From the sequence record NC_019505.1: DNA of 64,000 nt. One strand, written 5' to 3'. Both the position numbers and the translations under genes were made by a program. Within the stretch, counting starts at the first letter, position 1. Each line of letters starts with the position of its first letter. Below the pieces are notes generated by a model, which ran no database searches, was not told the DNA's origin, and saw only the letters and a list, made by a program, of their open reading frames with translations. The stretch is from Escherichia phage wV7. Below are positions 2,480 through 61,897 of the stretch, piece by piece.

Positions 2480-3484
2480 TTAGCTCACCAACTCAATCCA
2501 AGCTGGACGAAGTACATCTTGCACCATTTTAACTAATTCCTTTTTAATCAAAGAAGGATTATCTGCTTGAGTTAGAGTAATACCTTCACGAGAAGTTTCT
2601 TCCAAAATATCTTGGACAGTTAGCCCCATCACCTTTCCAAAATCCTTTGGACCAATTTCGCCAATTTTAGAAATAACGTTATTTACTCGGTTCAGTGTAA
2701 CGTAACAAGCTAAAATTCCCACCAATTTGTTATCAGCTTCTGACAATTCAACTTTAGCTTTAATAGGCTTATCAGACTTTTTCTTTTCACTAAATTTAGA
2801 ATTCTTGCATTTGATGGCTACACGATTGCGATTAGGCAGCCAAGAAGGATAACAAGGTTTCAATACATATCCTTCAGCGGTAAATACTTCGCCTTTGGCT
2901 TCGGCATTCCAAACGCATTTATTTGCATCAACTAATCCAGCATGGTCTACTGTAAAATTATAATCTTGGACGACAGAATCTAAATCATTTGGCAATTTAA
3001 TAAGCTCTTCAAATTTACCGCGACCTAAAAGTGGAGCCATTTTAAATTTAAATGTATTGCAGAATGATTCCATCATATAATCATCGACATAAGTCATGTC
3101 ACCACTTTCTGTAGTGACAATAATGTCAAATACATAGAAATCTTTATCACCATAATCAACATTCTTCTGAATGCCAGGTCCAGCGAATTCGCCAAAAACT
3201 TGATAAGATACAACCGCTGAAGTTTCCATAATATCTTGTACTGCTTTAATGGAATCAGCGTAATTCTTTAGAATAATTTCATACCCAAAGAAATCTTCAG
3301 CAGGAAGAATCGGTCCAGTACGTTTAGCGCAAGTTACTTTATCACGCTCAATAATCAATGAGAAATTTGTGCCGTGAATCTTTTCACGAGCTACCCATTC
3401 GCCGCCAGTCAATCCCAAGCTATAAAGTTTTTCAATAAATTTAGAGTTGTAATGATTTTCAAGACTGCTATACTTTTTAAACAT
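2480..3484 (-). CDS. rnlB: RNA ligase 2 (Rnl2)
   Basis: 334 aa, starts [19 protein letters not shown] and contains the KIHGTN adenylylation motif; matches recalled T4 Rnl2. Confidence 0.93.
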
Positions 3485-29249: not shown

Positions 29250-30639
<1,390 letters not shown>

Positions 30640-32074: not shown

Positions 32075-33686
<1,612 letters not shown>

Positions 33687-58387: not shown

Positions 58388-58537
58388 TTACTGCATGACT
58401 GTGATAACTGTCATGATAACACGTTGAATTCCGAACGCAAGAAGACCTCCTGCTACGGCTGGAACAACACCTAAACCCGCCAGTAAAATGCTACCAGATA
58501 CTAATGCAGCGCTTGTAATACCTATGAATGGACTCAT
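58388..58537 (-). CDS. Small hydrophobic peptide (49 aa), not in the ORF track
   Basis: MSPFIGITSAALVSGSILLAGLGVVPAVAGGLLAFGIQRVIMTVITVMQ; ATG overlaps the gene 52 stop. Confidence 0.45.
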   Translation of the reverse strand: MSPFIGITSAALVSGSILLAGLGVVPAVAGGLLAFGIQRVIMTVITVMQ

Positions 58538-59862
58538 TTGATTTCCTCTAAATCTTTGGTGTATTCTGTAACTACATCAGTAGTTTTCCAATATTCGTTT
58601 TCTTCTTTTTTGGCTTTAGCTTCTTCAGCAAGTTTCTTCGCTTCATCGGAAGTCATATGAAAAATATTCATTCCGACTAGTTTATCAACATAAGAAGAAT
58701 ACATCTCAATTTTAGAAAGTTCTTCGGTCAGTTCTTTGCGAGTTTTACCCTGTACAACAATTTCACCTGAAATTACTTTCTTAATGAAATGCGCCTTGGC
58801 AAAGGCTAAACGAAATGCTGACTCAGTTTCTTTGATTTTGTTATCAATTCGTTTTTGGACATAAGTTTTACGAACTTCAACAAAGTCTTTAATTAAATCG
58901 ACTACGTTATCGTAAACTTGTAGTTTTCCTTTCTCATTAATAACCGTAATATTCTGAGAACGACGCTCAATCAACCCGAAGTCTTTCATAATTTTTGCAT
59001 GACGTTCTTCTTCATTATCGCTCAAAGAATATTCTTTGCGGAATTTAACTTTGAATCCAAAACCATGCTCACCACAAGCATCATCCCATGTAATGAAGCC
59101 TTTATCTTCAAGTGGGTCTAAGATTTTACTCACATAAGTTTCACGATCATACTTATACGGAATCTCAGTGATATGCATTTGAGTTCGTGAAGTAAACTTA
59201 TATGTTCCACGAATTTCATATTGCCCATCAATTTCAACGACTTCACCACGAAATTCTGGGAATTCTACCTTCGGTTTAGTTACTTTCTTTCCTTGAAGAG
59301 CTTGTAGTACAGCTTTCTTGACAGAAGAAACGCTATGAGGAAGAATGTAAGTTGCATAACCAGTTGCAATACCGGAAACGCCATTAAGAAGAACAGTAGG
59401 AATAATAGGCAAATAGAAAGCAGGCGGAATGTGTTCTTTATCTTGATGTACCGGAGCATATTCAGTATCTTTATATACGTTATAGAAATTTTTACTTACA
59501 CGAGCAAAAATATAACGACTTGCTGCTGCCTTTTGGACAGTACGAGAACCAAAGTTTCCTTGACCATCTAACAGAGGAAAGTTATTATTCCAAGTGTTAG
59601 CCATCAAAGCACCTGCGTCTTGTGCAGAGTTTTCGCCATGATGATATCCAAGGTCCGCTACACCGCCTGCGATAGAAGCGAGTTTGTGAAACTTATCTTT
59701 ATTTCCTCGTGCCAAATCAAGAGCTCGAGCAATAACAAATCGTTGAACTGGCTTAAATCCATCAATCATATTTGGAATAGCACGATTTTCAACCGTGTAC
59801 ATAGCATAAGCCAATGCTTCATTATCAATGATACTTTTTAAATCGCGATTATTCAGTTGCAT
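58534..59862 (-). CDS. 52: DNA topoisomerase II medium subunit gp52
   Basis: 442 aa; gyrase A-like N-terminal region with catalytic-tyrosine context (AASRYIF). Confidence 0.9.
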   Translation of the reverse strand: MQLNNRDLKSIIDNEALAYAMYTVENRAIPNMIDGFKPVQRFVIARALDLARGNKDKFHKLASIAGGVADLGYHHGENSAQDAGALMANTWNNNFPLLDGQGNFGSRTVQKAAASRYIFARVSKNFYNVYKDTEYAPVHQDKEHIPPAFYLPIIPTVLLNGVSGIATGYATYILPHSVSSVKKAVLQALQGKKVTKPKVEFPEFRGEVVEIDGQYEIRGTYKFTSRTQMHITEIPYKYDRETYVSKILDPLEDKGFITWDDACGEHGFGFKVKFRKEYSLSDNEEERHAKIMKDFGLIERRSQNITVINEKGKLQVYDNVVDLIKDFVEVRKTYVQKRIDNKIKETESAFRLAFAKAHFIKKVISGEIVVQGKTRKELTEELSKIEMYSSYVDKLVGMNIFHMTSDEAKKLAEEAKAKKEENEYWKTTDVVTEYTKDLEEIK

Positions 59863-59866
59863 AAAT

Positions 59867-60007
59867 TTACCATACTAGTGAATGTAGTGCCATAATAACA
59901 TCAGAAATGAAAAGCACGACTTGAATTAATCCGAACATTACTCCATAATATAGTGCTACTAATAAAGCAGCAAGGGCTAATGAATAGCCCAAGATTTTCT
60001 TAATCAT
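59867..60007 (-). CDS. Small hydrophobic peptide (46 aa), Ac-like position
   Basis: MIKKILGYSLALAALLVALYYGVMFGLIQVVLFISDVIMALHSLVW, hand translation. Confidence 0.4.
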   Translation of the reverse strand: MIKKILGYSLALAALLVALYYGVMFGLIQVVLFISDVIMALHSLVW

Positions 60008-60152
60008 TTTTATTTAATAGCCAAAACAATAATAAAATTGCTAATACGCCTTGAGCTGTTGCTTGTAAAAATACTGAAGTTTCTCCAGTTATTACTGTTC
60101 CGGCGAATAAAAAGGACCAGCAGAAAAAGGCTATACCATAAACAAATTTCAT
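60000..60152 (-). CDS. Small hydrophobic peptide (50 aa)
   Basis: MKFVYGIAFFCWSFLFAGTVITGETSVFLQATAQGVLAILLLFWLLNKND, hand translation; overlaps the next ORF. Confidence 0.4.
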   Translation of the reverse strand: MKFVYGIAFFCWSFLFAGTVITGETSVFLQATAQGVLAILLLFWLLNKND

Positions 60153-60162
60153 ATTTTCCTCA

Positions 60163-60240
60163 TTAGCGTCCGAAGACGCCTTTAGTTTTAAAATTATTAC
60201 GATAGAACTGCATCACATGTTCGTTATGGAAATTACTCAT
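60163..60240 (-). CDS. stp: Stp peptide (25 aa), activator of host PrrC anticodon nuclease
   Basis: [25 protein letters not shown] closely matches the recalled T4 Stp; TAATG overlap with the ndd stop. Confidence 0.7.
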
Positions 60241-60683
60241 TAATATGCCTGCAAAACGAATTTAAAGTTATCAGCCAACATACGGTTCATTTCTTCAAGT
60301 GTTTGATACTCAGAATGATGATTACGAGTAAACGCTAAAGCTAACTGACCTTTACCAAATCCCGTCGTCAGAGGTTTCATCTTAGAAGCAGGCAGATAAA
60401 ATACTGTGTATGCCATATTGTTATTTGCAATAGTACGCGCAAGCTGAGACCGGCGTTGACGAATATGACTTAGAACTGCGCTGAATCCTTGCTTAGAACG
60501 CTGATTACCAACATAAAATCGTGCAGACACACATGAACCATCGAATTCACTTACTAAAAAGTAAAATCCAGGTTTAGACAAAATGTCTTTATGCGGAGTT
60601 CCCAAAAACCACTCACCGCCCTTGATTGTACCAATAACAGTAGCGCCTGCATTATTTAGATCAGTAACAGTCATATATTTCAT
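60240..60683 (-). CDS. ndd: Ndd nucleoid disruption protein (147 aa from MKYMTVTD)
   Basis: [33 protein letters not shown]...; the track ORF extends upstream through a hairpin. Confidence 0.85.
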
Positions 60684-60716
60684 ATTAATTTCCTCTAAAT
60701 TATTTTCTACTCCAAG

Positions 60717-60736
60717 GCCGCATGAATACGCGGCCA
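60717..60736 (-). other. Hairpin GGCCGC-(8 nt)-GCGGCC upstream of ndd
   Basis: Inverted repeat read directly between ORF 60742..60957 and the ndd ribosome-binding site. Confidence 0.5.
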
Positions 60737-60741
60737 TTAAA

Positions 60742-60957
60742 TTAATCGTCGCAGTCGACGCTCAATTCCCAAAACTCTTCTACGGTATAAGTTTCAGTAT
60801 CATTTTCAATACAGAAACGTTCATTACTGTTATTTGCTAAAGTAGCGTTAACTGTCGGTTTCTCGCTAGTGCTCTTAAGAGGTGAAATACGAATTAACTG
60901 ATCACCGTTATCTAAACAGAAAATTTCACCAACTTTTACATCTTTAAAACTTTTCAT
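60742..60957 (-). CDS. Hypothetical protein (ndd.x position)
   Basis: 71 aa ORF. Confidence 0.5.
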
Positions 60958-61072
60958 AATTCACCTCAAGGAGTATAAAATCCAAATGCAGTTGTTGACC
61001 ATCCCATCCAATATGGAAAATTTGCACCAATGTAAAACATAAGAATATAAAACCAACCGCTCAACAAATTCA

Positions 61073-61291
61073 TCATTTTACACCATTCCAAATTGTTTCA
61101 ACTACGGATTTTAAACCATTTTGATGAATATCCATTCCGACTACTGCCATCAAATAGATTCCAACTACAACTGAACCTAAGGCAAAAATCAGCATGAAAA
61201 TGAATAAAGCCGGAAAAATATTATCGAAAAACCATTCAATAAATGTAAAAGCACTGCGTTTACGCTTCATATTTTCCTCACATAAATCCAA
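61073..61291 (-). CDS. Small membrane protein (ndd.x position)
   Basis: 72 aa with a central hydrophobic helix. Confidence 0.5.
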   Translation of the reverse strand: MDLCEENMKRKRSAFTFIEWFFDNIFPALFIFMLIFALGSVVVGIYLMAVVGMDIHQNGLKSVVETIWNGVK

Positions 61292-61391
61292 AGTAAACGT
61301 TTAATACATCAATCATTAAAACGATTGGGAATATACTCAAAACTATTAGTATTATAACTACATTCCATATAGCTTTAACAATCTTTTTCAT
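61278..61391 (-). CDS. Small membrane peptide (~37 aa from MKKIVKAIW)
   Basis: Track ORF reads through the promoter; real start follows ribosome-binding site ggaggaacagaaaATG. Confidence 0.45.
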   Translation of the reverse strand: MKKIVKAIWNVVIILIVLSIFPIVLMIDVLNVYFGFM

Positions 61392-61419
61392 TTTCTGTTC
61401 CTCCGTAGTTGATAGGGTA

Positions 61420-61449
61420 ATAGTACCACGGAAGAACAGTCTTGTAAAC
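61420..61449 (-). promoter_or_regulatory. Early promoter (GTTTACA, 17 nt, TACTAT)
   Basis: Minus strand: gTTTACAagactgttcttccgtggTACTATTaccctatcaactacggaggaacagaaaATG. Confidence 0.55.
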
Positions 61450-61633
61450 AACTTTTTAAAAATATTCGTAATAAATGTGAATACCAATCACCACTGCTGA
61501 AACCTGTGCAACCCACCACGCACAAGCAATAAGTACAGAATTCAAAATTTTCATAATAACCTCATCACAAAAGTAAATGTTAAACAAATTAATGGAATAC
61601 TAATTAACCAAACGAAACACCACCATAATGAAC

Positions 61634-61897
61634 TCATAGCTCAATCTCAGCGATTTTCATTTCATTACTATTAATAGCCGCTTTAAGACTATCTGAAAGA
61701 ATTACATTCCAGTGGTCATTCATATGACCATTAACTAAGCGTGTAATTTCTTCGGGAGTTGAAAAATAAGGCGTATCAGACTCCCAATGCGATAATCCTA
61801 AGCGAGTATAAATCATACCTTCATCATCGCTAGAATATTCAACTGACACAAACTCATCAGTTATTTTATGTTTAGCGTAATAAAATTTAAATTTCAT
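61634..61897 (-). CDS. Hypothetical protein (~87 aa from MKFKFYYAKH)
   Basis: Track ORF reads through the promoter; real start follows ggaggagcggaaaATG. Confidence 0.5.
   Translation of the reverse strand: MKFKFYYAKHKITDEFVSVEYSSDDEGMIYTRLGLSHWESDTPYFSTPEEITRLVNGHMNDHWNVILSDSLKAAINSNEMKIAEIEL

Follow-up and report, generated by a model that had tools for sequence, protein, structure and literature searches.

Three small T4 genes, stp, ac and 52.1, in the interval between ndd and gene 52 of Escherichia phage wV7

The interval between ndd and gene 52 in Escherichia phage wV7 (NC_019505.1) raises the question of whether the very short reading frames found there are genes or accidents of the sequence. 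The initial annotation of the 64,000-nucleotide stretch analysed here (hereafter the window) had reported three small ORFs in this interval as an unannotated cluster encoding a peptide resembling T4 Stp and two hydrophobic peptides. We found all three ORFs on the minus strand where they had been placed, with peptides exactly as described. The attribute "unannotated" applied only in part. Positions 59700-60800 are 100% identical in DNA sequence to E. coli O157 typing phage 7 (KP869105.1), a record that has no CDS from 'gyrA' to ndd and in which stp, ac and 52.1 are missing. In T4 and RB51, on the other hand, the three genes are annotated; ndd is annotated in all three records. In many other T4-like records, the spot is either blank or carries a nonsensical label. 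A 'naphthalene 1,2-dioxygenase' label was found at or near the stp locus in OL631483.1, OL964735.1, OP856590.1 and PV287714.1, and the feature lies directly under stp in OL964735.1 and OP856590.1; at this locus it is evidently an automatic mis-annotation. stp, ac and 52.1 are absent from KP869105.1 and many T4-like records because they are shorter than the cut-offs of gene callers. The gap in KP869105.1 is a matter of annotation, not of biology.

The opposite explanation would be that the three ORFs are chance frames in an AT-rich intergenic spacer and were left unannotated for that reason. All of them fall under the usual length limits of gene callers, many spurious ORFs of 20-60 aa exist near the locus on both strands, and the gap in KP869105.1 was left empty. 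However, the three peptides gave strong profile matches to curated families, and they are the same as, or nearly the same as, the products of annotated, genetically defined T4 genes. Purifying selection is evident from the comparison of pN with pS for 52.1 and stp, conservation extends to the start contexts and to the ribosome-binding site, and scanning of 59500-61000 identified no Rfam RNA family at the locus. Homology and pN/pS already refute an origin of these ORFs by chance, to which we assign next to no probability. We conclude with high confidence that the wV7 region is the canonical T-even early block ndd-stp-ac-52.1-52 of Tequatrovirus, in which stp, ac and 52.1 are genuine minus-strand genes (Table 1). 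The gene order matches those annotated in T4 (NC_000866) and RB51; gene identity, synteny and coding constraint were all observed directly.

Table 1. Features of the ndd-52 block and the tRNA-repair genes in the wV7 window
Feature	Coordinates	Strand	Description
ndd	60240-60683	minus	nucleoid disruption protein, 147 aa from MKYMTV; Pfam PF06591 (Phage_T4_Ndd) E=3.8e-87
stp	60163-60240	minus	25 aa; ORF and profile match
C(UUCG)G tetraloop hairpin	60165-60180	minus	GGCGUC-UUCG-GACGCU on mRNA; MFE and centroid folds
ac Shine-Dalgarno GAGG	60158-60161	minus	5 nt upstream of ac ATG, within the 10-nt stp-ac spacer
ac	60000-60152	minus	50 aa, MKFVYGIAFFCWSFLFAGTVITGETSVFLQATAQGVLAILLLFWLLNKND
52.1	59867-60007	minus	46 aa, MIKKILGYSLALAALLVALYYGVMFGLIQVVLFISDVIMALHSLVW
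MotA-box-like middle-promoter motif	59945-59969	minus	TGCTTTA-N12-TATTAT, inside 52.1, pattern match
gene 52	58534-59862	minus	DNA topoisomerase II medium subunit, 442 aa; Pfam PF00521 E=1e-76, phrog_551; annotated in T4/RB51
rnlA	32075-33235	minus	RNA ligase 1; Pfam T4_Rnl1_C E=1.4e-39 and RNA_lig_T4_1
pseT	29439-30344	minus	polynucleotide kinase/3'-phosphatase, 301 aa; Pfam HAD_PNKP E=1.8e-59 and AAA_33
rnlB	2480-3484	minus	RNA ligase 2, 334 aa; Pfam T4_Rnl2_C E=6.2e-24 and RNA_ligase

The cluster had also been described as having overlapping stop and start codons. This is correct for ndd/stp, where one nucleotide is common to the ndd stop codon and the stp ATG (TAATG), and for ac/52.1, which overlap by 8 nt (ATGATTAA), but not for stp/ac, where a spacer with GAGG intervenes. 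52.1 is followed by gene 52 after 4 nt. The GAGG upstream of ac is kept as (U)GAGGAAAAUAUG in all the Stp-bearing T4-like loci examined. stp, ac and 52.1 would be translated from one minus-strand mRNA; the stop-to-start overlaps of ndd/stp and ac/52.1 suggest translational coupling, and ac would be served by its own GAGG ribosome-binding site. An in-frame ATG upstream of ndd at 60737 (60684-60737, 18 codons) would extend its product to 165 aa; the MKYMTV start is common to T4, RB51 and the Pfam model. Further upstream of ndd, 60742-61640 on the minus strand contains more very small ORFs, mostly hydrophobic and several of them below 45 aa, which correspond to the ndd.1-ndd.6 cluster of predicted membrane or periplasmic peptides in T4.

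The initial annotation had described the 25-aa peptide as a close match of T4 Stp, a description that was borne out by the profile search, by direct peptide comparison and by the canonical gene order. The peptide matched Pfam PF08133 ('anticodon nuclease activator') with 68 bits against a cut-off of 25 (E=4.4e-19), spanning residues 1-25 of the 26-position model, as well as phrog_6763 ('activator of host PrrC lysyl-tRNA endonuclease') with E=1.4e-19. With T4 Stp (NP_049878) it has 24/25 identical residues, including all of residues 1-16; both genes are located directly after ndd with the TAATG overlap, both end in a C(UUCG)G hairpin, and wV7 likewise has the partner genes pseT and rnlA. The wV7 peptide differs from T4 Stp by L17F and by a stop one codon earlier (CAG->TAA), which removes Q26, and is identical to the Stp allele of RB51/RB68 (25/25 to the annotated RB51 peptide). 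The 25-aa form with F17, or a sequence within 1% of it, was found by tblastn in 28 records of the phage collection. Matches at 95-99% identity amounted to 438 records versus these 28 at >=99%, making the F17 form a minority. Across the family, position 17 is L, F or I, distant siphophage members included. Comparison of wV7 Stp with a siphophage copy gave pS of 0.60 and pN of 0.06. Among 36 IMG/VR loci encoding Ndd homologues, Stp is present in 13, and at these Ndd loci more distant T4-like phages lack Stp but retain 52.1. A sequence search of the PDB for Stp found no structure.

T4 Stp is necessary and sufficient for the activation of latent PrrC, which it brings about by inhibiting the PrrC-bound type IC enzyme EcoprrI (Uzan & Miller 2010, PMC3014915), and it also inhibits EcoR124I (PMC3014915). 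The mechanism of EcoprrI inhibition was still called unknown in a 2025 review (EcoSal Plus 2025, PMC12707154), and both type IC inhibition and PrrC activation have been demonstrated only for T4 Stp (PMC3014915, PMC12707154). We infer from this and other literature every biochemical activity that is assigned here to Stp, Ac and the neighbouring products. Following the published T4 model, wV7 Stp would bind and inhibit type IC restriction enzymes such as EcoprrI and EcoR124I. In prr+ hosts, inhibition of EcoprrI would unmask the latent PrrC anticodon nuclease held on it, PrrC would then cut tRNA-Lys, and PseT together with Rnl1 would repair the cut tRNA. That pseT, rnlA and rnlB are encoded in the same window, as the initial annotation had proposed, was confirmed by their Pfam matches (Table 1); the rnlA ORF begins with GTG, and its real start may be internal. 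We also sought proteomic detection of Stp in a T4 omics paper and found no mention of stp, 52.1 or ndd there.

Could the two differences from T4 Stp have altered this function? Loss-of-function (suppressor) mutations in T4 Stp cluster at residues 4-14, and deletion of eight C-terminal codons reduced the activity only moderately (PMC3014915). Because this much larger deletion is tolerated to such an extent, the absence of Q26 is unlikely to matter. L17F is conservative and lies outside the zone of residues 4-14, and we expect the F17 variant to be active on these sequence grounds. Its full PrrC-activating potency is only assumed, since residue 17 falls within the N-terminal 18 residues that were described as 'almost absolutely conserved' (PMC3014915). 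One might instead regard the F17 form without Q26 as a natural escape allele that either keeps anti-restriction without triggering PrrC or is wholly inactive. Selection of loss-of-function stp alleles by prr+ hosts would favour such an allele, as would the location of residue 17 in the nearly invariant N-proximal part and the minority status of the F17 form. The location of the suppressor mutations argues against it, as does the finding that the residues required for activation of the anticodon nuclease (ACNase) mostly coincide with those required for EcoprrI inhibition (PMC3014915). Moreover, position 17 is hydrophobic throughout the family, the C-terminal deletion is tolerated, and the phage still has pseT and rnlA. 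We consider an escape allele very unlikely and regard wV7 Stp as a variant that would probably act as T4 Stp does.

The presence of a hairpin at the 3' end of stp was likewise observed directly. The initial annotation had written it as GCGTC-CGAA-GACGC; folding showed that the hairpin is real, but this notation is that of the antisense strand, and the mRNA carries the UUCG loop (Table 1). It is built from Stp codons 21-25, which encode GVFGR, and from the initial U of the UAA stop codon, with a 6-bp stem and a free energy of -9.3 kcal/mol in the window, compared with -11.5 in T4. Tuerk et al. are said to have described C(UUCG)G hairpins in T4 mRNA in 1988. CTTCGG occurs 31 times in the window, about twice the expected 14.2 +/- 3.2, and 14 of the 31 copies have a stem of at least 5 bp (5-9 bp), most of which follow a stop codon on the coding strand at a distance of 4-35 nt. 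Examples of such stem-loops are found at 1104, 4053, 7744, 20949, 24866, 25745, 50045, 54115, 62819 and 63047. The C(UUCG)G loop closes an extraordinarily stable hairpin that was first noticed in T4 mRNA (for the history, see PMC4371310). The stp hairpin belongs to this known T4 class. Like about 13 further hairpins of the window, it stands at the 3' end of a cistron, with a 6-bp stem rich in G+C; unlike most of them, which are located in intercistronic spacers, it is inside the coding sequence.

Does the hairpin terminate transcription? A terminator would act either on the early mRNA or on antisense plus-strand transcripts, and on the plus strand a consensus scan did flag GCGTCCGAAGACGC with CTTTAGTTTT after it as resembling one. 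However, what follows the hairpin on the minus strand is AAUGAGGAAAAUAUG, a sequence that contains no U-run and continues into the ribosome-binding site of ac. The neighbouring genes are all encoded on the minus strand, and a U-tail is likewise missing from several other C(UUCG)G hairpins of the window. We therefore rejected a Rho-independent terminator on the coding strand, where the tail is AAUGAGGAAA without a U-run and a T-rich tail exists only in antisense; without a U-tail, the stp hairpin is not an intrinsic terminator on the transcribed strand. A terminator in either orientation is highly improbable, and the hairpin probably serves in mRNA folding or stability instead.

The overlap of the hairpin with Stp codons makes it necessary to ask which of the two is conserved. 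Comparison of 11 distinct T-even stp sequences showed just two changes within the hairpin, GGC->GGU and UUCG->UUUG, both of which keep the pairing; the sample is small, and conservation of the peptide is a confounder in it. We rejected the hairpin as the sole reason for the conservation of GVFGR, since siphophage stp copies encode GVFGK with entirely different codons and form no hairpin. Their retention of this tail indicates that the Stp peptide tail itself is constrained.

The two hydrophobic peptides of 46 and 50 aa in the initial annotation proved to be gp52.1, which had not been named there, and Ac, respectively. The peptide in the Ac position, encoded between stp and 52.1, is a homologue of T4 Ac: it matched phrog_2501 with 81 bits (E=7.5e-23), and BLASTP against T4 Ac gave 38% identity over 47 aa (E=6e-8). 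T4 Ac (NP_049877, 51 aa), the acridine sensitivity determinant, is of a similar size class, occupies the same slot, overlaps 52.1 by the same 8 nt, and likewise has two hydrophobic segments, an SVF.QA.AQG centre and a C-terminal ND. For the wV7 peptide, a hydropathy profile revealed the two hydrophobic segments, with a GRAVY of 1.12. The nucleotide identity of ac is only 62.8% to T4 in addition to the low amino-acid identity, whereas it is 86.5% to RB51 ac ('acridine resistance protein'), placing the wV7 gene in an RB51-like allele group; homologues in RB51, RB33 and others are annotated as ac. The flanking ndd, stp, 52.1 and 52 have 91-99% nucleotide identity to T4. ac thus appears as a sharp island of divergence in an otherwise near-identical neighbourhood. 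Only 14 phage records contain this allele at >=95% identity. Many ac alleles were seen across T4-like phages by tblastn. Against RB51, pN/pS of ac is about 0.46, a weaker constraint than for 52.1 and stp. These comparisons suggest either cassette-like exchange of ac or fast evolution of a membrane peptide.

Ac would be a small membrane peptide with two segments, which in T4 makes infected cells sensitive to acridines; according to a recent hypothesis, it would block AcrAB-TolC efflux. T4 ac knockouts are resistant to acriflavine, and interference with AcrAB-TolC has been proposed as the explanation (bioRxiv 10.1101/2025.06.30.662393; PMC13250531). The acriflavine phenotype has been shown only for ac alleles of the T4/T2 type with 93-100% identity (bioRxiv 10.1101/2025.06.30.662393). 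Because all the acridine genetics refers to T4 Ac, with which the wV7 peptide has only 38% identity, the acridine phenotype of wV7 Ac may differ from that of T4.

In gp52.1, all 46 residues are identical to those of T4 gp52.1 (NP_049876), the two genes differing by two synonymous substitutions and both being located directly upstream of gene 52. The peptide matched Pfam DUF7396 with 81 bits against a cut-off of 27 (E=6.2e-23), and comparison with T4-like phages that are more distant gave a pN/pS of 0.07-0.12, with pS about 0.4, which indicates purifying selection on what would be a conserved small membrane peptide, as predicted. The MotA-box-like motif inside 52.1 precedes the gene 52 ATG by ~80-100 nt and is a weak candidate for a gene 52 middle promoter; it is only suggestive because the same motif has eight matches in the whole window against 2.4 expected. 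A literature search for a gene 52 middle promoter gave no support, its main match being silent on 52.1, stp and ndd.

The same small genes are rearranged in a group of T4-like relatives. L010:2941-3620 (as well as L011, L095 and L105) contains a tandem duplication in the order stp-ac-[52.1 fragment fused to a second stp lacking its start]-ac'-52.1. The junction is located at a GAGTAAT microhomology common to 52.1 and stp, and the two ac copies are different alleles.

How far does Stp extend beyond T4-like phages? We surveyed the family by tblastn on the GenBank phage collection and with a degenerate DNA pattern on IMG/VR. The tblastn search also matched small ORFs in phages unrelated to T4, and the core MS[NS][FW]HNEH[VI]MQ[FW][YH]R was found in ORFs of 25-30 aa in Drexlerviridae (T1-like; Braunvirinae and Tempevirinae) and Swiduovirus. 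Representatives from Veterinaerplatzvirus (30 aa), Bas11 of the Tempevirinae (26 aa) and Swiduovirus (MSNWHNEHIMQWYRRRIKAIINSYEV) scored 52.6, 36.1 and 35.1 bits against PF08133, all three over the threshold. The pattern scan of IMG/VR yielded 72 loci, of which about 12 arose by chance, the match either lacking a start codon or falling inside a longer ORF. In about 60, an ORF of 25-30 aa begins four codons before the match; a ribosome-binding site can be recognised for most of these, and most are on contigs of 43-53 kb. These siphophage ORFs are located at L040:1483-1575, L041:1501-1581, L042:1501-1581 and in about 60 of L043-L114. Two siphophage Stp types matched 120 and 181 GenBank records, respectively, in overlapping sets that are nearly all unannotated at this ORF; at least two records (OQ469755.1 and PQ850630.1) already label it as an anticodon-nuclease activator. 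A literature search pairing Stp with Drexlerviridae found no paper.

Four of the contigs (L080, L091, L092 and L098; 43-45 kb) encode a peptide with 23/25 residues identical to wV7 Stp and 24/25 to T4 Stp, while about 60% of the synonymous sites in stp are changed and no UUCG hairpin is present. This pattern points to an old horizontal transfer followed by strong selection at the peptide level. In Tempevirinae (L041:2058-2594 and 12 IMG/VR loci, e.g. L055, L058, L089 and L110), the Stp-like ORF is always followed, at a distance of 0.5-1.3 kb, by the gene of a 178-aa protein annotated 'polynucleotide kinase', whose alignment with PseT is confined to the 3'-phosphatase domain (residues 157-300). 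This neighbour hints that PrrC-type tRNA damage and repair matter for siphophages too. The linkage was found only at class B (Tempevirinae) loci and was absent near class C and T145P1 Stp copies; because of this confinement, the proximity may reflect clade synteny rather than a functional link. We propose only tentatively, as a possibility that falls somewhat short of an even chance, that Stp is a horizontally mobile micro-peptide directed against type IC restriction, common to T-even phages and to the siphophages of Drexlerviridae and Swiduovirus that infect E. coli, Salmonella and Citrobacter, whose records usually leave it unannotated, and that its tail was recruited as a C(UUCG)G hairpin in T-even phages only.

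For the wV7 window, the outcome is a repair of annotation, in which three genetically defined T4 genes missing from records are restored. stp, ac and 52.1 are long-known genes of textbook T4 biology and are not new. The divergent ac allele is of relevance to acriflavine selection in the engineering of T4-like phages. The Stp-family ORFs of siphophages provide a modest lead for catalogues of anti-defence genes and leave the verdict on wV7 unchanged. Stp itself is a classic phage anti-restriction factor that is sensed by a guard nuclease, and its identification in wV7 is relevant to predicting how the phage would behave on prr+ hosts.
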